Source of the DNA: an uncultured Anaerolineaceae bacterium
Lineage (GTDB): Bacteria; Chloroflexota; Limnocylindria; Limnocylindrales; CSP1-4
Length of the DNA: 64,000 bases
Assembly: GCA_964483405.1 (NCBI GenBank)
Contig: CAZABC010000002.1
Span: 108,355-172,354, forward strand
Reading direction: 5' to 3'
Each line of letters starts with the position of its first letter. Position 1 is the stretch's first letter. Positions 1 through 13,889 of the stretch are shown one piece after another. The translations under genes were made by a program, and so were the position numbers. The notes below the pieces were generated by a model, which saw only the letters and a list, made by a program, of their open reading frames with translations, had not been told where the DNA came from and did not search any database.

Positions 1-630
1 CTCCTGGGCCTGGTACGGCCCGGAGCCGACGAGCGGCGGCTCGAACTCGACGTTGCCGATCGTCTCCCAGGTCTCCTCGCCCCAGACGTGCTTCGGCAGG
101 ATCGGGACGTAGGTCTGGAGGATCCGGCCGGAGGCGTCCTCGGTGTAGGCGATCATCGTCGTCGGGTCGGGGCACTCGACCTTGGTCAGCCCGGCGTCGG
201 CGACACTCGGGTCGATGTAGCCGAGCCCGACGCTGCCCTCGTTGGCGATCGCGTCGAGGGCAAGCTGGAACGAGAAGCAGGCGTCGGCGGAGGTCGCCGG
301 CTCACCGTCCGACCACAGCATGTCGTCGCGGAAGGTGAAGGTCCACGACTTCCCGTCGGCGGCCCGCTCCCACGTCTCGGCGAAGCCGGGGATCGGCTCG
401 AGGTCGGGGCCGAAGTCGACGAGCAGCTGGTAGGACAGCAGGAACGCCTCGTACCCGACGACGAGCGCGGTGCCATACGGGTTCAGCGAGTCGTTGTCCT
501 GGGTGCCGCCGACCTTGAGGACGAGGGGGTCCGCGGCGGCCACCGGGGCCAGGGCCGGGAGCAGGAGCGCCCCGGCAAGGCCGAGCGCGCCCGCCAGGCG
601 GGCTCCTCGGGCGCGGAGTGAGCGTGCCAT
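1..630 (-). CDS. ABC transporter peptide/oligopeptide-type substrate-binding protein (OppA/DppA family), truncated at the window edge
   Basis: Not in the ORF track; translated by hand from ATG at 630: MARSLRARGARLAGALGLAGALLLPALAPVAAADPLVLKVGGTQDNDSLNP...FAETWERAADGKSWTFTFRDDMLWSDGEPATSAD...GSGPY. Signal peptide, SBP family 5 motifs, GAGGAGG RBS upstream. Confidence 0.88.
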   Translation of the reverse strand, partial: MARSLRARGARLAGALGLAGALLLPALAPVAAADPLVLKVGGTQDNDSLNPYGTALVVGYEAFLLSYQLLVDFGPDLEPIPGFAETWERAADGKSWTFTFRDDMLWSDGEPATSADACFSFQLALDAIANEGSVGLGYIDPSVADAGLTKVECPDPTTMIAYTEDASGRILQTYVPILPKHVWGEETWETIGNVEFEPPLVGSGPYQAQE

Positions 631-802
631 CGACGTCCTCCTCGAGCCGCGGGTGCGGGGCCGTCCCGCCTCGTCGCCCGCCCGTTCCCCGTCCGATCGA
701 CCCCCGCCGGCACGGGGCACGGGCCGACTCTCGCACACCGGCACCCGCCGCCGCAAGTCGGCGGCGCAGCGGGCGGGTCGGGCGGCCAGCTTGGGGGGCC
801 GG

Positions 803-2068
803 TCAGACGAGGAAGCGTCGCTCGGCGTCGGGCTCCCGGAGCGCCGGTCGGTCGATCCCGAACGCCGCGATCTCGCCAGCCGCCGGGGTCGCCGCGTCGA
901 GGGCGAGCTCGGCGGCGATCGCGCCGAGCGCGGACGCGAACTTGAAGGCGTGGGCAGCGCCCTGCAGGACGACCACGCCCGGCGCCTCCGGCAGCCGATC
1001 GACGATGAAGTCCCGGTCGGGCGGCATCGTGTAGAGGCATGTCTTCGTGGACAGCCGCGGCCCGAGGGCGCCCGGCAGCCGGGCGGCCAGGAAGGCCTCG
1101 ACCCGGGCGAGCGCGTCCGGGTCGGGCTCGAAGGTCCTCGTCGAAGGGCTCACCTCGCGACCACCGACGTCCTGGGCGGCCTTGGGACCCGGCTCGCCGT
1201 ACGTCGGGAACCCGTAGAACGACGGGTCATCCATCCAGATCCAGACCGGGAAGCGCTCCGGCGCGAACGCGGCGGCGTCGGGCGCGGCGAAGTAGGTGAC
1301 CTGTTCCTGGGTCACCGTCAGCGGCAGGCGCCGCTCGAAGGAGGCGAGCAGCTCGTTCGTCCAGGCATCGGCCGCGATCACCACCGAGCCGGCCCGGTGG
1401 ACCGACCCGTCGACGAGGACGAGGTCGTGGCCGCCCGCGATGGGCCGGATCGCCGTGACCGGGCTGCCGGCGAAGAGCGTCGCGCCGGCGGCCCGGGCGA
1501 GCCGCCGGTGGGCGGCGTTGCCGCGGTACGGATCGGCGATGCCCGCGTCCGCCTGGTGGAGGGCGACCGTGTCGTCGGCGAGGCGCCACGCCGGCCAGCG
1601 ACGCATGACCTCGCGTGCGTCGAGGCGCTCGAACGGGACGCCGGCGGCGGTCATCGCCTCGACGTAGTCGGCTTCGCCGATCGCCGCGCCGACGGGGAAC
1701 AGGTCGAGGCCGCCGGTCAGCGTCACGATCCGCTCGGCGGGCCCGAGCCCGGCGGCCGCCTCGACCTCGGCCCAGCTCGCGTACGCCCGCGCGGCGAGCC
1801 GGACGTAGTCGGCCCGGTGGTACGAGCGGCGGATGATCCGCGAGTGGTCGGCCGAGGCGCCGTTCGCGTGGCCCAGCGCGAACCGCTCGAACCCGGCGAC
1901 CCGGTCGCCGAGCCGCGCCGCCAGCCACCAGGCCGCCGCCGAGCCGAGGGCGCCGAGGCCGACGACCGCCGCATCCCACTCGCGCCGGCCGGTCCAGCCG
2001 GCCGCCGACTCGCCCGGCGGCTCGGGCGGCTGGCCGGCGCCGGGGCCGGGGCCGGTGGATCCGCTCAC
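803..2068 (-). CDS. Monomeric sarcosine oxidase / N-methyl-L-tryptophan oxidase (SolA/MSOX-like) flavoenzyme
   Basis: VVGLGALGS FAD motif, GASADHSRIIRRSY, CLYT flavinylation-type Cys, C-terminal HAFKFA. Confidence 0.85.
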   Translation of the reverse strand: MSGSTGPGPGAGQPPEPPGESAAGWTGRREWDAAVVGLGALGSAAAWWLAARLGDRVAGFERFALGHANGASADHSRIIRRSYHRADYVRLAARAYASWAEVEAAAGLGPAERIVTLTGGLDLFPVGAAIGEADYVEAMTAAGVPFERLDAREVMRRWPAWRLADDTVALHQADAGIADPYRGNAAHRRLARAAGATLFAGSPVTAIRPIAGGHDLVLVDGSVHRAGSVVIAADAWTNELLASFERRLPLTVTQEQVTYFAAPDAAAFAPERFPVWIWMDDPSFYGFPTYGEPGPKAAQDVGGREVSPSTRTFEPDPDALARVEAFLAARLPGALGPRLSTKTCLYTMPPDRDFIVDRLPEAPGVVVLQGAAHAFKFASALGAIAAELALDAATPAAGEIAAFGIDRPALREPDAERRFLV

Positions 2069-6086: not shown

Positions 6087-6737
6087 TCAGCCGGCGATCA
6101 GGTCCCGGGCGATCAGCGCCGCGAAGCCGAGGATCACGAGGTTGCCGACGACGCTCGTCGCCCGGATCGCCCCGGGCGAGGCGTGCCGGTGGAGGAGTCC
6201 GCCGGCGCCGGCGAGCAGGAGCTGCCACGACGCGGAGGCGATGAACGCCGCGAGGGCGAAGACGAGCCGCGCGCCGGCCCCGCCCTGGACCGCCGGCAGC
6301 CCGAGGACGAGCGCCGCGAAGTAGGCGATCGTCATCGGGTTGAGGATCGTCAGGGCAAGGAAGCCAGCGTAGGTCCGGAGCGCCGAGCCGGCGGCCGCGT
6401 CGCGGGCGACGCCGTCGGCCCCGGCGACGACGTCGGCGGGCCGACCCCGGGCCGCGAGGAGCAGCCCGCGGCCGCCGATGCCGACGAGGACGAGGACCGA
6501 GAGCCAGCGGAGCGGCACGGACAACGGCGCGAGGGCGACCGCGATCGCAGCCCCGAACAGGCCCGCGAGCGTGGCGTAGATGCCGTCGGCGGTCGCGGCG
6601 CCGAGGCCGGCCGCCGCCCCGATCCGGACGCCGCGGCGCGCCGCCGTCTCGACGATGAGCACCGCGATCGCCCCGACGGGGATCGCGACGCCGTAGCCCG
6701 CGAGCGCGCCGGCGATCGCGGCGTCGACGAGGTCCAT
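6087..6737 (-). CDS. LysE family amino-acid exporter
   Basis: AIPVGAIAVL, GLGAATADGIY, FLALTILNPMTIAYF; about six hydrophobic segments. Confidence 0.85.
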   Translation of the reverse strand: MDLVDAAIAGALAGYGVAIPVGAIAVLIVETAARRGVRIGAAAGLGAATADGIYATLAGLFGAAIAVALAPLSVPLRWLSVLVLVGIGGRGLLLAARGRPADVVAGADGVARDAAAGSALRTYAGFLALTILNPMTIAYFAALVLGLPAVQGGAGARLVFALAAFIASASWQLLLAGAGGLLHRHASPGAIRATSVVGNLVILGFAALIARDLIAG

Positions 6738-6749
6738 CGGGCCGCCGGG

Positions 6750-8291
6750 TCAGGCCCCGGGCAGACCGAGCTGGGCGATCGCGTCACCGAGCGCAGCCCG
6801 GTGCTCGGCGGTCGAGAAGTCGAGGAGCGGGTGCGGGGGCAGCGCCACCTCCCGGATCGTGCCGCCGGCCCGGACGTAGGCGACCGGGAAGATCGAGCCC
6901 GCGCCGTCGGCCTCGACGGTCATCGCGACGGCCGCATCGGGGCCCTCGTCGACGAACGACGCGAGCGGCACGATCCCCTCGTCGCGCACCCCGAGCTCCG
7001 GCGAGACCGAGACGACCCGGGCGAGGAACGCCTTCTGGTGCCACAGCTCGGGCGCGCAGGTCGCCTCCTCGAGGAGCATCGGCAGGACCGCCTCGGGTGC
7101 CAGCGACGGGCGCACCGCCGGCCGCCCGAAGCGCGTCTCGGCCAACCGCCGGGCGAGGATCCGGGCGTTGTAGCGATGGCCATGGACGGCCCCGGAGTTC
7201 GGCGGGATGCCGTGCTTCTTGAGCCCGGCCTGGGCTTGGGTGATCGTCCCCGCGAAGAAGATGCCCGGGACCGACGCGGACTCCCACCAGGTCGTCTGGG
7301 CCGGCAGGGCGGCCTGACCGAAGGTGGCGACGCCGAGGCCGGGCAGGTCGCGGAGCGGGCAGGTGAAGCCGGTCGCACTGATGACATCGTCGGCGGCGAA
7401 GCCGAGCTCGGCGCCGGTGTCGGTCCGGCGGACCCGGATGGCGAGCGCGCCGTCGCGCGGCTCGATCCCCTCGATCGTCGCGTCGAGGATGCCGACCCCG
7501 CCGCCGAGGGCGTGGTCCTCGAACGGCTGGAGGTAGCGGGCCCGGACGCCGACGAGCGACTTCGTGACGACCGAGAGCTTCGCCGGCGAGGGCGAGGCGA
7601 GGGTGATCGAGCCCGCCCACGGGAGGAGGCCCGAGGCGAGCTCGAAGCCCGAGTTGTGCTTGCCGAGGATGAAGACCCGCCGGCCGGCGTACGACCGGGC
7701 GGGCCGGACGGCCGCGTAGTGGTGGGCATGCTCGATCCCGGGGACCGCGGGGTCCCATGGCTCGGCCACGCCGACCGCGAAGATGGCGACCCGGCAGCGG
7801 TACTCGCCGTCCTCGGTCTCGAGGACGAACCGCTCGCCATCCGGCCCGTCCTCCCGCCGCGTCGCCGTCCAGGCACAGCCGTACCGCACGGCGGTCCCGG
7901 TGCGGTCGGCGAAGGCGGTGAGGTTCGCCTCCATCTCCGGACGCGACGGGAAGGACGAGGTCCCGTCCATCAGCCCGGCCTGGAGCGAGGCCGCCTCGGG
8001 CTCGTCGGCCAGCAGGCTGTTCCAGTCGTAGCGCTCGTAGGCGCGGGTCCCGCGCTCGTGCGGCGCGTACGGCTTCGTCCACGACAGGAGCCGCTGGAAG
8101 AACGGCCAGCGACGGAACATGCCGCCGGGGCCCGGGTCGGCCGAGACGATCGCGTGGTCGATCCCGAGGCGCCGCAGCGAGTACGAGAGCTGGAGGCCGC
8201 CTGGGCCGCTGCCGACCACGACGACCGGGTAGTCGCCGGGCGGGAACGGGCGCCCGTCCGGCCCGACGGGGATCGTGGGCTCGGGAGTCAT
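6750..8291 (-). CDS. FAD/NAD(P)-dependent oxidoreductase, FOXRED2/ERFAD-like
   Basis: VVVGSGPGGLQ FAD motif, RYDWNSLL, second dinucleotide motif VFILGKHNSGFE, VHGHRYNAR. Start at MTPEPT (ATG 8291). Confidence 0.8.
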   Translation of the reverse strand: MTPEPTIPVGPDGRPFPPGDYPVVVVGSGPGGLQLSYSLRRLGIDHAIVSADPGPGGMFRRWPFFQRLLSWTKPYAPHERGTRAYERYDWNSLLADEPEAASLQAGLMDGTSSFPSRPEMEANLTAFADRTGTAVRYGCAWTATRREDGPDGERFVLETEDGEYRCRVAIFAVGVAEPWDPAVPGIEHAHHYAAVRPARSYAGRRVFILGKHNSGFELASGLLPWAGSITLASPSPAKLSVVTKSLVGVRARYLQPFEDHALGGGVGILDATIEGIEPRDGALAIRVRRTDTGAELGFAADDVISATGFTCPLRDLPGLGVATFGQAALPAQTTWWESASVPGIFFAGTITQAQAGLKKHGIPPNSGAVHGHRYNARILARRLAETRFGRPAVRPSLAPEAVLPMLLEEATCAPELWHQKAFLARVVSVSPELGVRDEGIVPLASFVDEGPDAAVAMTVEADGAGSIFPVAYVRAGGTIREVALPPHPLLDFSTAEHRAALGDAIAQLGLPGA

Positions 8292-8304
8292 CGGACCGCC
8301 ACGC

Positions 8305-8727
8305 TCAGGCGCGCCAGCGGTTGGCGTTCCGCAGGCGACGGGCCTGCGACTGGAGCATCCGGTACATGACCCGCGGATGGGCGACGAGGAAGGCCTCGAC
8401 CGCCGGCCCGCCGAGGACGAGCGCCCGGACCGGCCGGAGGGCGACCACGTCGGCGGTCGGCGGCTCGCCGAGGAGGATCGACACCTCGCCGAAGAACTCG
8501 CCCCGGCCGAGCCTGGCCCGCTCCTCCCCGTCGACGAGGACCGAGCACTCGCCGTCGAGGATGACGTAGAAGCCCGAGCCGGTGAGGCCCTGGCGGAGGA
8601 TCCGCTCGCCGTCGGGGAACCAGACTTCCTCGAACTGGCCGGCGACCGCCTGTAGCTGCGGCGTCTGGAGATCCGCGAACATCGCGAACCCGGCGATCGT
8701 GTCGACGATCTCGTCGCGACCCGCCAT
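8305..8727 (-). CDS. Stand-alone cyclic nucleotide-binding domain protein (variant phosphate-binding cassette)
   Basis: ILRQGLTGSGFYVILDG...GEFFGEVSILLGEPPTADV; 140 aa; no HTH; GGAGG RBS. Confidence 0.85.
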   Translation of the reverse strand: MAGRDEIVDTIAGFAMFADLQTPQLQAVAGQFEEVWFPDGERILRQGLTGSGFYVILDGECSVLVDGEERARLGRGEFFGEVSILLGEPPTADVVALRPVRALVLGGPAVEAFLVAHPRVMYRMLQSQARRLRNANRWRA

Positions 8728-8875
8728 CGGCCCTCCCTCTCCACCGCGGGGCTCGGGGTCCGCGATGAGCCGCGATGGTACACCCGCGCCTTCGGGCCGC
8801 GGAAGGACCCCGGTCGCCTTGACGCCCGTCGGTCCGGCGCGCACGATGCGCGGCACGCAGGGAGGGTACCGGTCC

Positions 8876-9298
8876 ATGCCAAGCGGTCCGCACGACGAGG
8901 CGCTCCGGTCGGTCCCGCTGTTCGCCGGCGCGGAGCCCGACGACCTCGGCGCCATCGCCGCCATCGCCGCCGAGGTCGAGTTCCCGGCGGGCCGCGTCAT
9001 CGTCCGCCAGGGCGACCCGGCGAACGGCCTCTTCCTGATCGTCAGCGGCGGGGTCCACGTCGTCTCCGACGGCGAGACGGTCGCCTCGCTCGGGCCGGGG
9101 GAGGTCTTCGGCGAGCTCGCGGTCCTCGATCGCGGCCCGCGGGTCGCGTCGGTCGTCGCCGACTCGCCGACGCGCTGCCTCGCGGTCGCGGCCTGGGACG
9201 CCGAGCGGCTCCTCCTCGAGCGCCCAACGCTCGCGGTCGCCGTCGCCCGGACCCTCGCCGTCCGCCTCCGGAAGCGCGCGGAGGACCATCACCACTGA
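8876..9298 (+). CDS. Stand-alone cyclic nucleotide-binding domain protein (canonical cassette)
   Basis: IVRQGDPANGLFLIVSG...GEVFGELAVLDRGPRVASV; 140 aa; GGAGG RBS. Confidence 0.88.
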   Translation: MPSGPHDEALRSVPLFAGAEPDDLGAIAAIAAEVEFPAGRVIVRQGDPANGLFLIVSGGVHVVSDGETVASLGPGEVFGELAVLDRGPRVASVVADSPTRCLAVAAWDAERLLLERPTLAVAVARTLAVRLRKRAEDHHH

Positions 9299-9354
9299 CC
9301 GAGCCCGGACCGCCCGCGAGCGACACCCCCGGCGTCCCGGGCGATCCGGGGCCG

Positions 9355-12081
9355 GTGGGCGGCCCGGCCGTGGCCGGCGGGCTGCCCACCGGCACGATCA
9401 CCTTCGTCTTCACCGACATCGAAGGCTCGACCCGCCTCGGGCAGCGGCTCGGCCCGGATCGCTACGGCGAGGTCCTCGAGCGCCAGCGAACGGCCCTCCG
9501 GGCCGTCTGGGCGGCCCACGGCGGCGTCGAGGTCGGGACCGAGGGCGACTCGTTCTTCGTCGCCTTCCCGAGCGCCGCCGAGGCCGTCGCCGCGGTCGCC
9601 GACGGGCAGCGGGCGCTGGCGGCGACGGACTGGCCGCACGACGAGCCGGTCCGCGTCCGGATGGGGGCCCACACCGGCGAGGGCCGCCTCGCCGCCGGCA
9701 CGTACGTCGGTCATGACGTCAACCGGGCCGCCCGGGTCGCCGCGGCCGGCCATGGCGGCCAGGTCCTGCTGAGCGAGACGACCCGGGCCCTCGTCGCCGA
9801 CGCGCCACCGCCGGGGACGGCCATCCGCTCGCTCGGCGAGCATCGCCTCAAGGATCTCCGGCCGGAGACGATCTTCCAGCTCGACGTCGAGGGCCTGCCG
9901 GTCGAGTTCCCGCCGCTCCGCTCGCTCGACGCGCGCCCCAACAACCTGCCGACGCTGCTCACCTCGTTCGTCGGCCGCGAGCACGAGCTCGTCGAGACGG
10001 AGCGGTATCTCGAGACGACCCGGCTGCTGACCCTGACCGGGCCGGGCGGCACGGGCAAGACCCGGCTCTCGCTCCAGGTCGCCGCGCGGGTCGGCGACCG
10101 GTTCCCCGACGGGACCTGGTTCGTGGCGCTCGAGCCGATCCGCGACCCGGCCCTCGTCGCGCCGACGATCGCCCGCGCGATGGGGCTCGCCGACAGCGGC
10201 GCCAGGCCGGCGGTCGACGTCGTCGCCGATGCCGTCGGCGAGCAGCGGGTGCTGCTCGTGCTCGACAACTTCGAGCAGGTCCTCGACGCCGCGCCGGTCG
10301 TCGCCGCGCTGCTCGGGCGGTGTCCGTCGCTCCGGGTCGTCGCGACGAGCCGGGCGGCGCTGCACGTCGCCGGCGAGCAGGAGTACCCGGTCCCCGGCCT
10401 GCCCGCGCCGCCGGACGCGAGCCACCTATCGCCGCTCGAGCGCGAGAACCTCCCGGCCGACGTCCTCCGGCCCGGACCGGCGGCGCTGTCGCAGTACGAG
10501 GCCGTCCGGCTCTTCATCGCCCGGGCGGGGGCCGTCCGGCCCGGGTTCGCCGTGACGAACGAGAATGCGCCCGCCGTCGCGGCGATCTGCGCCCGGCTCC
10601 ACGGCATGCCGCTCGCGATCGAGCTCGCGGCGGCCCGGGTCAAGCTCCTCGGTCCGGACCAGATCCTCGCCCGGCTCGAGCAGCAGCTCGGGACGCCGTC
10701 GGGGGCCGCCCGGGACGTCCCCGACCGCCAGCGCACCCTCCGTGGGGCGATCGCCTGGAGCTACGACCTGCTCGACGAGCCCGTCCGGCGCCTCCTCGAC
10801 CGGCTCTCCGTCTTCAGCGGCGGGTGGGACCTCGACGCCGCCGAGGCCGTCTGCGGCCCGGGCCCCGAGCTCGACGTCGAGGTCATCGACGGCCTCGCCG
10901 TGCTCGTCGACCAGAGCCTGGTGCGGGCCGACACCGAGGCCACCGACCCACGCTTCGACCTCTTCCCGACGATCCGCGAGTTCGCCGCCGAGATGCTCGC
11001 CGGGCGCGGCGAGGCGGCGGTCATCGCCGCGGCCCACACCGCCCACTTCCTGGCGGTCGCCGAGACCGCCGCACCGCACCTCTCGGGCGCCGACCAGCGC
11101 CGCTGGCTCGACGCGCTCGAGCGCGATCACGACAACCTGCGGGCCGCCCTGGAGCGGGCGACCGCCGCGCCGGACCCGGAGTCGGCGGTCCGGATCGCCT
11201 TCGCGCTGTGGCGGTTCTGGCAGCAGCGCGGCTACCTCAACGAGGCGCGCGCACGCCTCGCGACCCTCGCCGCGCAGGATTGGGCGCTCGCGCCCGAGCT
11301 CCGGGCGCGCCTCGCCGAGGCCGCCGGCGGGGTCGCCTACTGGCAGGCCGATCATGCCGAGACGATCCGCTGGTACGACGAGGCGCTCGCCATCCGCCGC
11401 GAGCTCGGCGACCCGCGCGAGCTCGCCAACGCCATGTACAACCGGGCCTACGCGGCGATCCTGCCGGTGACGGACGAGGCGGAGCGCCGGCGCAACTTCG
11501 AGGCCTCGCGGGCGATGGCCGAGGAGGCGCTGGCGATCTATCGCGAGCTCGGCGACGAGGCCGGCGAGGGTAACCTGCTGTGGGCCCTCGGCAGCCTCGC
11601 CTACTTCGACAACGACCCGGCCGGGGCCGAGCGGTGGTACCGCGAGGCGCTCGAGACGTTCCGGGCGGCCGGCCACCGGACGATGGAGGCCTGGGCGCTC
11701 CACATGGTCGCGACGACCGACCTCAAGCTCGGCCGGGTGGACGACGCCCTCGCTGCGGGGCGGCACGCCCTGCGCCACTTCCGCGACGCCGGTGACCTGT
11801 CCGGGCTGACGCTCGTCCTCGACGACCTGTCGGCGACGGCGGTCGCGATGGGCGACCACGATCGAGCCGGCCGGCTGCGCGGGGCCGCCCGCCGGCTCCA
11901 GGCGACGACGGGCACCGAGCTCGCCGGCTGGGTGGACGCGTACTTCGAGGAGGAGACCCGGCCGAGCGCGGCGCGGACGCTCTCGGCGGCCGATCTCGAG
12001 CGGACGATGGCCGCCGGCGCGGCGATGAGCCTCGACGACGCGGTCGCCTACGCGCTCGGCGAGCGCGACGCGCTACCATGA
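9355..12081 (+). CDS. Class III adenylate/guanylate cyclase fused to STAND (NB-ARC-like) NTPase and TPR repeats
   Basis: FTDIEGST...EGDSFF...VNRAAR cyclase motifs; LTSFVGRE; Walker A GPGGTGKT; Walker B LLVLDNFEQ; GMPLAIELAAAR; helical C-terminus without a LuxR HTH. Confidence 0.92.
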   Translation: MGGPAVAGGLPTGTITFVFTDIEGSTRLGQRLGPDRYGEVLERQRTALRAVWAAHGGVEVGTEGDSFFVAFPSAAEAVAAVADGQRALAATDWPHDEPVRVRMGAHTGEGRLAAGTYVGHDVNRAARVAAAGHGGQVLLSETTRALVADAPPPGTAIRSLGEHRLKDLRPETIFQLDVEGLPVEFPPLRSLDARPNNLPTLLTSFVGREHELVETERYLETTRLLTLTGPGGTGKTRLSLQVAARVGDRFPDGTWFVALEPIRDPALVAPTIARAMGLADSGARPAVDVVADAVGEQRVLLVLDNFEQVLDAAPVVAALLGRCPSLRVVATSRAALHVAGEQEYPVPGLPAPPDASHLSPLERENLPADVLRPGPAALSQYEAVRLFIARAGAVRPGFAVTNENAPAVAAICARLHGMPLAIELAAARVKLLGPDQILARLEQQLGTPSGAARDVPDRQRTLRGAIAWSYDLLDEPVRRLLDRLSVFSGGWDLDAAEAVCGPGPELDVEVIDGLAVLVDQSLVRADTEATDPRFDLFPTIREFAAEMLAGRGEAAVIAAAHTAHFLAVAETAAPHLSGADQRRWLDALERDHDNLRAALERATAAPDPESAVRIAFALWRFWQQRGYLNEARARLATLAAQDWALAPELRARLAEAAGGVAYWQADHAETIRWYDEALAIRRELGDPRELANAMYNRAYAAILPVTDEAERRRNFEASRAMAEEALAIYRELGDEAGEGNLLWALGSLAYFDNDPAGAERWYREALETFRAAGHRTMEAWALHMVATTDLKLGRVDDALAAGRHALRHFRDAGDLSGLTLVLDDLSATAVAMGDHDRAGRLRGAARRLQATTGTELAGWVDAYFEEETRPSAARTLSAADLERTMAAGAAMSLDDAVAYALGERDALP

Positions 12082-12150: not shown

Positions 12151-12570
12151 ATGGCCATCGCACCGATCGTCATCCGGATCGACAGCCCGGCCTCGCCGGC
12201 GACGGCCTGGCGGGCGATCACCGATCCGGCCTGGGTCACCCGCTGGTTCACCGACGCGACGCCGATCGGGCCGCCCGGCGAGACCTACCATCTCGACTTC
12301 GGCGGTGGCTCGGTCATCGAGGGCGAGATCGAGGTCGTCGACCCGGGCCGGACCTTCCGCCACCGTTGGGACTGGGTGGACGGCGCGCCCGGTGGCGGGA
12401 CCGTCGTGACCTGGACCATCGAGTCACTCGACGACGACGGCGCCCGGGTGACCCTGCGGCACGATGGCTGGGCCGAGGCCGGCCAGCCCGAGGAGGTCCG
12501 GGACGACCACGCCTCCTACTGGGAGGGCTACCTGGCCGACCTCGAGGACCTGCTCGCGAACGAGGCGTGA
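12151..12570 (+). CDS. SRPBCC/AHSA1 (START-like) domain protein
   Basis: PATAWRAITDPAWVTRWF...VTLRHDGW...WEGYLADL. Confidence 0.8.
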   Translation: MAIAPIVIRIDSPASPATAWRAITDPAWVTRWFTDATPIGPPGETYHLDFGGGSVIEGEIEVVDPGRTFRHRWDWVDGAPGGGTVVTWTIESLDDDGARVTLRHDGWAEAGQPEEVRDDHASYWEGYLADLEDLLANEA

Positions 12571-13889
12571 TCGCCCGGCTCCGGGCGTACGCCGCCGGCT
12601 TCCGCGGGTTCCAGCCGGACGCCCGGCTCTTCCTCGTCACGACGGTCGTCGCGGGTGCCGCGATCGGGCTCTACTGGGTCGACTTCTACCTGTACCTCGC
12701 GGCGCTCGACTTCGACAACGCGACGATCGGCATCGTCGCCGCCATCTCGTCGTTCGCCGCGGCGATCGCATCGATCCCGACCAGCGCCATCTCGGATCGC
12801 ATCGGACGGCGCCTCCCGCTCGCGGGCGGGATCGTCCTGATGATCGGCGCCACGATCGGCTTCATCGCCGTCACCGAGCCGATCGCCATCGCGGCGCTCG
12901 TCGCGGTCTACGCGGTCGGCCAGCAGGCGTTCTTCGTCGTCACGATCCCGTTCATGGCCGAGCACAGCCGGCCCGAGGAGCGCAACGAGCTCTTCTCGCT
13001 CCAGTTCGCGCTGAGCACCGGCTCGAACATCATCGCGGTCCTGCTCGGTGGCGGGCTCGCCGCGGCCGTCGCCACCGGGCTCGGCCTCTCGGCCGACGCC
13101 GACGTCTATCGGGTCATCCTCGGGGCCATGGTGATCGCGCTCGTGGTCGCCCTCGTCACCGTCGCCCGGCTGGGCGACGATCGCCCGCGCGCCCGGGCGA
13201 TCGCGAACCCGGCCGCGCTCGGCGAGCCCGCCGCGTGGCCGACCCGACCGCCGTCGTCCGGGTCGGCGGCCCGGATCGGCCTGACGGTCGTCGACCGGGG
13301 TCGCTTCGTCCGGCTGGTCCTGCCGGGCTTCCTCATCGCCCTGGGCGCCGGACAGGTCATCCCGTTCCTCAACCTCTTCATCCAGGGCAAGTTCGGGCTC
13401 GATCTCGCCCAGCTCAACGTCGTCTTCGCCATCACGAGCCTCGGCACGGTCGTCGCGATCATGGTCCAGCCGGCGATCGCCCGGCGGCTCGGCCAGGTCG
13501 GCTCGGTCGTCGCGGTCCAGGGGGCGAGCATCCCGTTCCTGGTCGTCCTCGGCTTCTCGCCGATCCTCGGGTCGGTCATCCTCGCGATGGCCGTCCGGAA
13601 CTCGCTGATGAACGCGGGCAATCCGATCCAGAACGCCTTCGCGATGCGGATCCTCCACCCCGCCGAGCGGGCATCGTGGTCGGCGACGACGAGCTTCCTG
13701 TGGTCGACCGGCTGGATCATCGCCGGCGCCTGGTACGCGATCCTCCAGCGCCAGCTCGGCTTCGAGGCGGGCTACGCGGTCGCGTTCATCACGATCATCG
13801 TCCTGTACTCCACGGCGACCCTGCTGTTCTGGTGGTGGTTCCACCGGTTCGACGAGCGGGTCACGGACCCGGTCGTCGCGAGCGGCTAG
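12567..13889 (+). CDS. MFS transporter
   Basis: About 12 TM segments, SDRIGRR motif A. GTG start overlaps the upstream TGA (GTGA). Confidence 0.88.
   Translation: MIARLRAYAAGFRGFQPDARLFLVTTVVAGAAIGLYWVDFYLYLAALDFDNATIGIVAAISSFAAAIASIPTSAISDRIGRRLPLAGGIVLMIGATIGFIAVTEPIAIAALVAVYAVGQQAFFVVTIPFMAEHSRPEERNELFSLQFALSTGSNIIAVLLGGGLAAAVATGLGLSADADVYRVILGAMVIALVVALVTVARLGDDRPRARAIANPAALGEPAAWPTRPPSSGSAARIGLTVVDRGRFVRLVLPGFLIALGAGQVIPFLNLFIQGKFGLDLAQLNVVFAITSLGTVVAIMVQPAIARRLGQVGSVVAVQGASIPFLVVLGFSPILGSVILAMAVRNSLMNAGNPIQNAFAMRILHPAERASWSATTSFLWSTGWIIAGAWYAILQRQLGFEAGYAVAFITIIVLYSTATLLFWWWFHRFDERVTDPVVASG

Follow-up and report, generated by a model that had tools for sequence, protein, structure and literature searches.

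A conserved gene neighbourhood combining a cyclase-STAND-TPR protein, stand-alone cyclic nucleotide-binding proteins and a flavoprotein: a candidate cyclic-nucleotide/redox signalling module

Class IIIc cyclases Rv0386, Rv1358 and Rv2488c of Mycobacterium tuberculosis consist of a cyclase domain followed by a MalT/STAND ATPase, TPRs and a LuxR helix-turn-helix (HTH) domain. Actinomycetota are rich in such STAND-TPR cyclases. STAND proteins sense through their C-terminal repeats and act through the N-terminal domain; TPRs typically bind proteins, and some STAND NTPases carry a DUF4062 domain. Rv0386 reportedly uses a Gln/Asn pair as substrate-specifying residues and has both adenylate and guanylate cyclase activity. 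One passage of a preprint (bioRxiv 10.1101/2024.03.06.583649) links a glutamine-asparagine pair to dual adenylate/guanylate cyclase activity and names Rv2488c. Ma1120 of Mycobacterium avium (PDB ID: 4wp3) and Rv1900c (LipJ; 1ybt) are, by comparison, single-domain or lipase-fused cyclases. On the receptor side, uncharacterised fusion proteins named 'Cyclic nucleotide-binding domain-containing thioredoxin-disulfide reductase' at NCBI unite a cyclic nucleotide-binding (CNB) domain with a low-Mr TrxR-fold flavoprotein. The CNB-homology domains of KCNH channels lack the cassette Arg and have a protein segment in the pocket, not a nucleotide.

The window, that is, the whole stretch of 64,000 nucleotides that was analysed, derives from an uncultured freshwater Chloroflexota bacterium. 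Four of its genes, in two divergent transcription units, are listed in Table 1. Coordinates and Pfam searches bore out every observed detail of the initial annotation, which had described four genes, two CNB proteins of 140 aa and a divergent gap of 148 bp. Since GC3 is 0.89–0.97 in the frames of all four genes, in a genome of 74–77% GC, the genes are real and not chance open reading frames. The gap is mostly 84–251 bp in relatives; in the window, it showed no sigma-70-like promoter, terminator or inverted repeat. A LysE-family exporter gene may be co-transcribed with FLAV. It is no conserved part of the module, as it was found within the flanks of 18 of the 57 loci of arrangement type A (see below) and was absent from all others.

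Table 1. Genes of the locus and domains of CYC.
Feature	Position	Strand	Remarks
LysE-family exporter gene	6087..6737	(-)	Pfam LysE E=9.7e-12; start 12 nt past FLAV stop
FLAV	8291..6750	(-)	513 aa
CNB2	8727..8305	(-)	140 aa; stop 13 nt ahead of FLAV ATG
Divergent intergenic gap	8728-8875		exactly 148 bp; between CNB2-FLAV and CNB1-CYC transcription units
CNB1	8876..9298	(+)	140 aa
CYC (cyclase-STAND-TPR)	9355..12081	(+)	908 aa; GTG start, 56 nt past CNB1 stop
Class III nucleotidyl cyclase domain	CYC residues ~10-190		Pfam Guanylate_cyc 43.6 bits (cut-off 21.9)
P-loop STAND NTPase	CYC residues ~200-450		Walker A GPGGTGKT, Walker B LLVLDNFE
C-terminal TPR array	CYC residues ~590-850		Pfam TPR_12 53.4 bits (cut-off 30.1)

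The architecture assigned to CYC at the outset is real and conserved. As in Rv0386, Rv1358 and Rv2488c, an N-terminal class III cyclase is followed by a STAND/MalT-type NTPase and TPRs; matches to AAA_22, nSTAND1 and NB-ARC are slightly under the Pfam cut-offs, and one orthologue (L110) passes the NB-ARC gathering score. Unlike the mycobacterial proteins, CYC has no C-terminal LuxR/GerE HTH detectable with Pfam, so that its output cannot be direct transcription. It also differs from them in being genomically tied to a CNB-flavoprotein pair, a linkage that, to our knowledge, has not been described for the three. The best sequence matches of the catalytic domain are to Ma1120, the closest solved cyclase domain (E=4.7e-16), and to Rv1900c (E=8.5e-12), with which CYC shares the metal-binding Asp pair. 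These residues (Asp21 and Asp65), together with Arg127, are conserved in 66–68 of 68 orthologues, a near-invariance that argues for a catalytically competent cyclase. The specificity positions, canonically Lys and Asp, are Gly61 and Thr116 in CYC and vary among orthologues; thus, CYC resembles Rv0386 in being non-canonical here, albeit with a different pair, whereas Ma1120 keeps Lys at the position aligned with the Gly. The transition-state Asn position is occupied by Asn or His, in about half of the proteins each, within the class. Together with the specificity positions, this drift could signify weakened catalysis.

Both small proteins are CNB domains (Pfam PF00027; CNB1, E=1.7e-21, 76 bits against a cut-off of 27.5; CNB2, E=5.9e-17) that share 38% identity with each other (BLASTP E=7e-22), and their best PDB sequence matches are the CNB domains of PKG and PKA regulatory subunits. 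The contrast between their cassettes drawn in the initial annotation is correct and extends throughout the family. CNB1 has a canonical Gly-Glu...Pro-Arg cassette (FGELAVLDRGPRVAS), and these residues are kept in 93 of the 96 CNB1-type genes, i.e. those not adjacent to FLAV. The CNB2 cassette (FGEVSILLGEPPTAD) is Arg-less: in HMMER alignments to PKG and PKA domains, a Pro falls on the cassette Arg and an Asp on the Ser/Thr that follows it. The Arg is likewise replaced by Pro (GExPxAD) in 152 of 153 genes lying directly 5' of FLAV, including those of Actinomycetota-type loci such as Euzebyales L088. Like PKA regulatory subunits in the holoenzyme, the two proteins possess no enzymatic or DNA-binding domain and would act in trans on an enzyme. 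Unlike them, each is a single CNB domain without inhibitor sequence or docking domain, one of the two lacks the cassette Arg, and the putative partner, with which we infer an interaction, is a flavoenzyme rather than a kinase. The KCNH domain, although eukaryotic and channel-attached, is a possible model for CNB2.

FLAV (Pfam Pyr_redox_3, E=5.8e-24) is an FAD/NAD(P)H two-dinucleotide-binding flavoprotein of the YpdA/TrxR/type II flavin monooxygenase fold, for which 5499 homologues were retrieved at E<=1e-5; it scored 34.8 against TIGR04018, where the cut-off is 339.9. The AlphaFold2 (AF2) model (pLDDT 89, pTM 0.90) gave its top Foldseek matches to Bdr/YpdA (7a76, 7a7b), 3d1c and 4a9w, over ∼380 columns only: residues ∼1–390 match these folds with E values of ∼1e-19 to 1e-20 and target-normalised TM scores of 0.77–0.83. 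FLAV shares with Bdr/YpdA and type II flavin monooxygenases the GxGxxG FAD and GKxNSG NAD(P)H motifs, but only 15–23% identity. CxxC is absent, and the active-site Cys of YpdA (GGGPCG) is Gly in FLAV (GSGPGG); the enzyme has no redox-active cysteines. It further differs from Bdr/YpdA in an extra C-terminal alpha/beta domain of ∼115 aa (residues ∼399–513), which is family-specific and had no relatives in Pfam or the PDB.

Among 170 related loci from genomes and metagenomes, the four genes occur together far beyond the source genome, the test on which the proposed module had been made to depend. A CNB2-type gene lies directly 5' of FLAV in 153 of the 159 loci having upstream sequence, with a stop-to-start spacing of mostly −13 to +10 nt; the two are translationally coupled. 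CNB2 is truly absent only from L081 and from beside a remote, 32%-identical homologue in L085/L086. The invariant core is therefore a two-gene operon, CNB2 followed by FLAV. CNB2 and FLAV are always separate genes, and FLAV has no CxxC, unlike the CNB-TrxR fusions; apparent fusions of the FLAV family in the protein library were frameshifted gene calls.

The recurrent genomic partner of this core is a TPR-linked class III cyclase, usually of the cyclase-STAND NTPase-TPR kind. In type A (52 of 56 fully flanked genome loci), CYC and CNB1 are divergent from CNB2 and FLAV. Type B (at least 23 loci, most on short contigs; seven have >=4 kb upstream and 3 kb downstream) has the order CNB2-FLAV-CYC with gaps of 12–57 nt, the cyclase carrying Arg/Glu at the specificity positions and CNB1 not being in the available sequence. 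CYC is divergent from CNB2-FLAV in several loci without CNB1 (type C), precedes the pair in type D, where CNB1 was not seen, and converges on it in type I (L087), where the cyclase has a canonical Lys...Asp pair. In L081, a CYC homologue (38% identical to CYC over 839 residues) overlaps FLAV by 4 nt in the order CYC-FLAV, and there are no CNB genes. L098 and L099 have a TPR-cyclase of inverted domain order, without NTPase, beside the pair. CNB1 is the most dispensable part of the module. In Limnocylindria, the class to which the window belongs, it sits between the cyclase and the CNB2-FLAV core, and most loci adjoin thyX, an S15 peptidase gene and a NUDIX gene. None of the genes that flank the module in the window recurs beside types B, C, D or I. 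Nine well-flanked CNB2-FLAV loci, mostly Actinomycetota-type, have no cyclase within 3–8 kb.

We favour, with a probability of roughly 0.4, a module for cyclic-nucleotide/redox signalling, chromosomal and vertically inherited, in which a cNMP made by CYC switches FLAV via CNB1 and CNB2. The TPR array would bind a ligand or protein, leading to NTP-dependent STAND oligomerisation, whereby the cyclase domains at the N-terminus would form active dimers and produce a 3',5'-cNMP. Since distant partners retain Lys/Asp, cAMP was probably the ancestral product; in the lineage of the window (Gly/Thr) purine selection may be relaxed or altered. CNB1 would bind the cNMP and then pair with, or displace, CNB2 on FLAV, a place that it might fit as a paralogue of equal size. 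CNB2 would be a pseudo-receptor and permanent regulatory subunit, binding no nucleotide or a non-phosphate ligand, and FLAV would be switched in trans, as the PKA catalytic subunit is by the regulatory one. The initial proposal that CNB1 reads the cNMP and the CNB pair regulates FLAV thus stands as only one of two live models, as CNB1 is not seen in several arrangements. Where it was not seen (types B, C and D), either CNB2 would sense the cNMP in a non-canonical manner, or an unlinked receptor would do so, or the flow would be reversed. These loci, CNB-less L081, the nine cyclase-less loci and the drift of the specificity and transition-state positions of the cyclase count against the favoured reading. 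So does, at the level of a model, an AF2 read-through pseudo-fusion of CNB2 and FLAV, which reached a pTM of 0.71 against 0.90 for FLAV alone, without a confident interface; it was built from nine paired rows with an artificial linker.

Signal flow may instead run the other way, which we consider rather unlikely: CNB2-FLAV would be an input reporting redox state or a small metabolite, read by contact through the TPRs, and the cyclase would broadcast a cNMP to CNB1 where present and to unlinked receptors such as CRP-type regulators. The CNB1-less type B operon and the overlap of CYC and FLAV in L081 are consistent with this, as are the sensor position of the TPRs in STAND proteins and their retention with the cyclase in L098/L099 despite loss of the NTPase, and an Arg-less CNB2 is a poor candidate for a reader. 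However, CNB1, having no output domain, would need another target, its nearest relative in the locus being CNB2, and the pair-only loci show CNB2-FLAV working without a linked cyclase.

It is distinctly unlikely that the reading is done by CNB2 itself, through a remodelled cassette (Arg/Ser changed to Pro/Asp) that binds the product of the non-canonical cyclase, or another ribose-containing ligand, by a novel mode, with CNB1 as a lineage-specific accessory. The ribose-contacting Gly-Glu and the exact cassette length are retained, the substituting Asp/Glu is itself conserved, suggesting selection for a new contact and not decay, types B to D have CNB2 only, and the cyclase specificity residues of the window and of type B are non-canonical. 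Nevertheless, an acidic residue at the cyclic-phosphate site should repel a cNMP, the identical cassette occurs in pair-only Actinomycetota loci, and CNB2 of L087 is still Arg-less beside a canonical cyclase.

It is improbable that only CNB2-FLAV forms a unit, with the cyclase and CNB1 just often lying beside it in GC-rich bacteria of soil and freshwater, which have many such cyclases. The abundance of STAND-TPR cyclases in Actinomycetota, the nine loci without one nearby and the partly conserved flanks in Limnocylindria would fit, but the partners are always homologous TPR-cyclases (38–63% identical to CYC), arranged in five or more gene orders that have gaps of 12–100 nt or overlaps. Their occurrence in otherwise unrelated contexts supports a functional link and not mere synteny.

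Very improbable, finally, is an abortive-infection or immune system of the Pycsar or Avs type, in which STAND-TPR would sense a phage protein and the cyclase signal, through the CNB proteins, would activate FLAV as an effector that burns NAD(P)H or makes ROS. The class III-type cyclase and CNB reader do recall Pycsar (PycC with CNB-TIR/TM effectors), Avs and other STAND proteins of defence systems have the effector-NTPase-repeat layout too, the L081 homologue has an N-terminal DUF4062 and PADLOC matched the CNB proteins, though only to the CNB part of PycTIR (E=7.6e-19). Yet PADLOC matched neither CYC nor FLAV to PycC, Avs or any other model of a defence system, a TIR or TM effector is absent from the CNB proteins, the surroundings showed no genes of mobile elements, position is conserved in Limnocylindria, and arrangements fall on well-supported clades of the FLAV tree, which indicates vertical inheritance and not island-like turnover. 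The resemblance to Avs and Pycsar noted initially found no support; the accompanying remark that no toxic effector is evident did, nuclease, TIR, pore and other known effectors being absent. The module looks more like ordinary cell signalling than phage defence.

No papers characterising a split CNB-flavoprotein pair or a CNB-TrxR fusion were found. By analogy with those fusions, the CNB2-FLAV pair suggests that CNB control of TrxR-fold flavoenzymes is a recurring theme. The four-gene unit is real, widely conserved and apparently undescribed so far, and we judge the module to be a variant of cyclic-nucleotide signalling.

The module has the four-gene layout and the CNB cassettes read in the initial annotation, all of which coordinates, Pfam matches and HMMER alignments confirmed in full. 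In this region of 74–77% GC with many spurious ORFs, true frames were chosen by third-position GC and homology. A cyclase-STAND-TPR gene (CYC) follows the gene for a stand-alone cyclic nucleotide-binding protein with a canonical cassette (CNB1), 56 nt separating the CNB1 stop from the CYC start; divergently from them, the gene for a second CNB protein, devoid of the cassette arginine (CNB2), lies directly upstream of a gene for a YpdA/TrxR-fold flavoprotein (FLAV), with 13 nt from stop to start. The intergenic region between the two CNB genes was searched for a sigma-70-like promoter, a terminator and an inverted repeat, and none was found. Genes for a LysE exporter, an S15 peptidase, a NUDIX protein and a Rieske oxygenase flank the module on one side and genes for an SRPBCC/AHSA1 protein, an MFS transporter, ThyX, a purine nucleoside phosphorylase and MoaA on the other; all look unrelated to it. 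The LysE exporter gene may be co-transcribed with FLAV in the window; such a gene is present within the flanks of only 18 of the 57 loci sharing the window's arrangement (type A). The SRPBCC/AHSA1 gene, found in 14 of these 57 loci, is probably a mere neighbour.

Features of the module and adjoining genes in the window
Feature	Position	Strand	Length	Remarks
LysE-family exporter gene	6087-6737	-		begins 12 nt past FLAV stop
FLAV	8291..6750	-	513 aa	Pfam Pyr_redox_3
CNB2	8727..8305	-	140 aa	Pfam cNMP_binding, E=5.9e-17
Intergenic gap	8728-8875		148 bp	between CNB2 and CNB1
CNB1	8876..9298	+	140 aa	Pfam cNMP_binding, E=1.7e-21
CYC	9355..12081	+	908 aa	Pfam Guanylate_cyc and TPR_12
SRPBCC/AHSA1-family protein gene	12151-12570	+		directly past CYC
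MFS transporter gene, longest ORF	12366-13889			after and overlapping the SRPBCC/AHSA1 gene

The 80 best loci came from species-representative genomes titled Chloroflexota, mostly Candidatus Limnocylindria/Limnocylindrales. Among these, FLAV is directly preceded by a CNB2 homologue in each of the 75 loci whose sequence extends far enough; 69 of 72 loci have a divergent CNB1, and 64 of 68 a CYC homologue with a cyclase domain. CNB2 and FLAV are mostly spaced by −13 to +10 nt, a sign of translational coupling. Near-identical DNA, the matching runs being DNA only, was found in metagenomes from freshwater, groundwater, sediment and wetland. Since the flanking thyX, S15 peptidase and NUDIX genes are likewise often conserved in the class, within-class synteny alone is a weak sign of a functional link. 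One locus (L002) carries between CNB1 and CNB2 a luciferase-like monooxygenase gene (~6620-7472, + strand; PF00296, E=4.8e-44) co-directional with CNB2-FLAV, and CNB1-CNB2 gaps of 0.9–1.1 kb are also seen in L007, L026 and L076. A typical Limnocylindria-type module is found in sequences titled Candidatus Eisenbacteria (L045) and named Bauldia sp. (P0118), where it probably represents binning contamination and not transfer.

Ninety further loci were obtained from a 50%-identity representative library, contig look-ups and a scan of metagenomes that started from FLAV sequences of Actinomycetota type, and all 170 loci (80 + 90) were analysed jointly; many metagenome contigs are short, and absences were counted only where the flanks were long. 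Of the 159 loci having upstream sequence, 153 have a CNB gene immediately before FLAV, the true exceptions being L081 and a remote FLAV homologue of 32% identity (L085/L086). CNB2-FLAV is the constant part of the module, and the pair stands alone in nine well-flanked loci, mostly of Actinomycetota type. A TPR-linked cyclase homologous to CYC adjoins the pair recurrently and in many configurations. In the FLAV tree the arrangements occupy distinct clades with good support, and types B, C, D and I have none of the window's flanking genes. Through repeated rearrangement, and in different genomic contexts, the cyclase has therefore stayed beside CNB2-FLAV or come to lie beside it anew, a classical signature of a functional link. 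Co-occurrence of the module genes in other genomes, on which the unit proposed in the initial annotation had been made to depend, was indeed found among the 170 loci compared.

Gene orders at CNB2-FLAV loci and related arrangements
Type	Gene order	Remarks
A	CYC<-CNB1<- ->CNB2->FLAV	window's clade
B	->CNB2->FLAV->CYC	gaps of 12-57 nt or overlap; CNB1 not seen; 23 loci
C	CYC<- ->CNB2->FLAV	without CNB1; 6 loci
D	->CYC->CNB2->FLAV	L101, L112, L165
E	CNB1-type gene upstream, co-directional	six loci
I	->CNB2->FLAV<-CYC	L087
Other	->CYC->FLAV	4-nt overlap; without CNB; L081
Other	inverted-order TPR-cyclase without NTPase, convergent on FLAV	L098/L099

Some CNB1-type genes are placed downstream of FLAV in convergent orientation. 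The CYC homologue of L081 (2885-6004, + strand), 38% identical to the window's CYC over 839 residues, has an extra N-terminal DUF4062 domain; upstream of it are genes for a SARP-type regulator and a FAD_binding_4 oxidase, which suggest an actinobacterial context. The 656-aa protein encoded in L099 (2509-4479, − strand) and L098 has its TPRs at the N terminus and its class III cyclase at the C terminus, an independent architecture of TPR and cyclase at a FLAV locus.

Other genes also recur beside the module. An MFS efflux gene of the DHA2/EmrB-type 14-TMS subfamily (TIGR00711, 225 bits) occurs in three arrangements, upstream of CNB2 (L110, 6005-7591, + strand; L116, L132, L137, L145-L151, L155), convergent after FLAV (L118, L120, L140, L042) and after CYC (L005, L022, L029, L142), and hints that the module handles an exported small molecule; the window's own MFS gene is unrelated to it at E<=1e-10. 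In type-B operons, CYC is followed by a gene for a class I pyridine-nucleotide disulfide oxidoreductase with Pyr_redox_2 and Pyr_redox_dim domains (L110, 12096-13535, + strand; L147, L149-L151, L153, L155, L119), distant copies of which (33–37% identity) were found in L042, L118, L140, L162 and L170. This protein is LpdA/MerA/mycothione-reductase-like, scores under all equivalog cut-offs, goes with the MFS gene in type C and may belong to an extended module as its second redox enzyme.

Both CNB proteins of the window exceed the PF00027 cut-off of 27.5 bits (CNB1, 76.4; CNB2, 61.9). The CNB1 cassette (FGE...PRVAS) keeps both Gly-Glu, which serves the ribose 2'-OH, and Pro-Arg, with the Arg for the cyclic phosphate, and by its sequence CNB1 is predicted to be a canonical cNMP receptor. 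The CNB2 cassette reads FGE...PPTAD; HMMER aligns its Pro with the phosphate-binding Arg, and its Asp with the next Ser/Thr, of PKG and PKA domains, and CNB2 lacks the canonical phosphate-binding cassette. The same dichotomy runs through the whole collection: the cassette Arg is missing in 152 of the 153 FLAV-adjacent CNB genes (consensus GE-x-P-x-A-D-[VI]), including those of Actinomycetota MAG loci such as a Euzebyales genome (L088), and is present in 93 of the 96 non-adjacent, CNB1-type genes, in which it is followed by Val, Asn or Ile and not by Ser/Thr. With 38% identity and equal length, CNB1 and CNB2 are plausibly paralogues capable of forming CRP-like dimers. Both stop after the C-helix, the C-terminal HTH of CRP/FNR transcription factors being absent, and the CRP and FtrB models match them over the N-terminal half only.

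Profile and catalytic residues place CYC among the predicted class III nucleotidyl cyclases. Residues 12–166 match PF00211 with 43.6 bits (cut-off 21.9), and the catalytic domain is nearest to Ma1120 (PDB match, E=4.7e-16) and Rv1900c. The window's CYC has the metal-binding Asp21 and Asp65 and the transition-state residues Asn123 and Arg127; among 68 orthologues from the class, Asp21 and Arg127 are kept in all and Asp65 in 66, with Asn (36) or His (32) at position 123. The substrate-specifying pair, Gly61/Thr116 in the window, is neither the canonical Lys/Asp (ATP) nor of the Glu/Cys type (GTP); it varies among orthologues and is Arg/Glu in type-B partners. Partner cyclases in L087, L098 and L099 have the canonical adenylate-cyclase Lys/Asp, which makes cAMP the probable ancestral product; in the window's lineage, purine selection appears to have been relaxed or changed. 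CYC is classed as a STAND NTPase, in which a P-loop NTPase with both Walker motifs precedes a helical/winged-helix module and repeats at the C terminus: Walker A (GPGGTGKT) and Walker B (LLVLDNFE), read from the sequence, are intact, and TPR_12 scores 53.4 against a cut-off of 30.1. Scores of the window's CYC fall slightly under the cut-offs of AAA_22 (26.3/27), nSTAND1 (23.3/27.1) and NB-ARC (15.9/23.5), the last of which is passed by the L110 orthologue (28.9 vs 23.5); HTH_77 was recorded for the CYC homologues of L081 and L087. Unlike Rv0386, Rv1358 and Rv2488c, which have a LuxR HTH, the window's CYC gave no match to GerE or any other HTH in Pfam and ends within or just past the TPR region. 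In 13 Limnocylindria loci (L006, L015, L017, L025, L026, L027, L036, L037, L039, L051, L056, L070 and L075), CYC-homologous sequence upstream of CNB1 extends over ~5 kb and not ~2.7 kb; these appear to carry two tandem cyclase-STAND-TPR paralogues.

In the AlphaFold2 model of FLAV (pLDDT 89, pTM 0.90), the first ~390 residues superpose best, among the Foldseek matches listed, on Bdr/YpdA. The other best superpositions listed are with the putative FMO of S. aureus (3d1c), type II flavin monooxygenases (4a9w, 4c5o, 4usq) and TrxR-type ferredoxin reductases; no FOXRED2 structure is among the 50 PDB matches listed, and the names given to distant cluster members say nothing about such a relationship. 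By motif and profile, FLAV is not a low-Mr thioredoxin reductase, having no CxxC in its sequence and a TIGR01292 score of 18.2 against a cut-off of 343, and the JGI label 'thioredoxin reductase' reflects homology only. Nor is it a YpdA/Bdr bacillithiol disulfide reductase (TIGR04018, 34.8 bits against a cut-off of 339.9): the YpdA/Bdr fold is the closest, yet the Cys of the YpdA/Bdr FAD motif (GGGPCG) is Gly in FLAV (GSGPGG). Every NCBIfam cut-off lies far above the FLAV scores. Residues ~399–513 form an alpha/beta domain for which no Pfam or credible PDB sequence relative was found, ankyrin matches (E>=0.0017, spanning 48 residues) being most likely due to chance. The family comprises 5499 proteins at E<=1e-5, and its annotations go no further than 'NAD(P)-binding domain-containing protein' or the homology-based 'thioredoxin reductase'. 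Four candidate CNB-FLAV fusions with N-terminal extensions (P0139, P0151, P0186 and P0216; 560–780 aa) proved to be frameshifted low-complexity gene calls from error-prone assemblies, with long out-of-frame Arg/Pro-rich stretches, and could mislead domain-architecture surveys. An AlphaFold2 pseudo-fusion, for which the one in-frame stop separating CNB2 from FLAV in L013 was read through, gave a pTM of 0.71 with a disordered linker and showed no fixed docking of the two parts; this was a weak test, from only nine paired rows plus unpaired ones and without PAE.

Taking the gene structures, motif dichotomy, operon coupling, multi-arrangement linkage and fold as observed, we infer the direction of signal flow throughout. 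Our preferred reading, to which we give a probability of roughly 0.4, is that the CYC product is read by CNB1, which acts via CNB2 on FLAV. The TPR sensor and the NTPase switch would gate dimerisation of the N-terminal cyclase, according to STAND logic; the cNMP would then be bound by CNB1, and CNB1 would act through its paralogue CNB2, the permanent regulatory subunit of FLAV. CNB1 and CNB2 would thereby play a role on FLAV like that of PKA regulatory subunits, which work in trans. In the main rival reading the flow is reversed: CNB2-FLAV would sense redox state or a metabolite, the TPR array would read this sensor, and cNMP would be the output. This would account more simply for the 23 operons without CNB1 and for the CNB-less L081, but leaves CNB1 without an obvious target except CNB2, and we regard it as somewhat unlikely. 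A novel mode of ligand binding by the remodelled CNB2 cassette, with its retained Gly-Glu and conserved Asp, seems quite improbable.

The module is most probably not a defence system, and the likeness to Avs and Pycsar immunity seen in the initial annotation found no support. PADLOC gave neither a PycC nor an Avs match for CYC, only marginal ones (mad8, E=0.0011; TPR, E=0.0047), and no defence match for FLAV; CNB1 and CNB2 match PycTIR models over the CNB portion only and carry no TIR or TM effector domain. The position of the module on the chromosome is conserved in the class and its gene organisation tracks the FLAV phylogeny. That no toxic effector is evident was correctly noted: neither such a gene nor a mobile-element gene is present among the window's flanking genes.

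What is understood of bacterial cNMP signalling comes mainly from transcription factors of the CRP type and from a small number of fusions between CNB domains and enzymes. The components described here are of known kinds; the unit itself was not found in the literature searched, which gave nothing relevant on the module or on CNB-TrxR fusions. This unit combines an obligatory pseudo-receptor CNB with a new flavoenzyme, repeatedly accompanied by TPR-cyclases and, in one class, also by a canonical stand-alone CNB. Thousands of environmental bacteria have an Arg-less CNB-fold protein tied at the operon level to an uncharacterised flavoenzyme, a member of a large family whose C-terminal domain is novel and to which no substrate has been assigned; beside this pair, TPR-linked cyclases have been repeatedly recruited.

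Unlikely when taken as a whole is a PKA-like logic built from free-standing parts, of which no bacterial counterpart is described in the literature searched. The receptor CNB1 and the pseudo-receptor CNB2 would be exchangeable regulatory subunits of FLAV, to which a dedicated STAND-gated, TPR-sensing cyclase would write with a remodelled nucleotide specificity, so that the messenger may not be cAMP. If true, this would be a non-transcriptional second-messenger circuit spread over Chloroflexota (Limnocylindria) and Actinomycetota-type soil and freshwater bacteria. To our knowledge, the inputs and outputs of STAND cyclases are largely unknown, even in M. tuberculosis. If its parts cooperate, the module would provide a function for stand-alone CNB proteins and STAND cyclases, and would constitute a post-translational circuit from cNMP to a redox enzyme, or from redox to cNMP, with a built-in pseudo-receptor.
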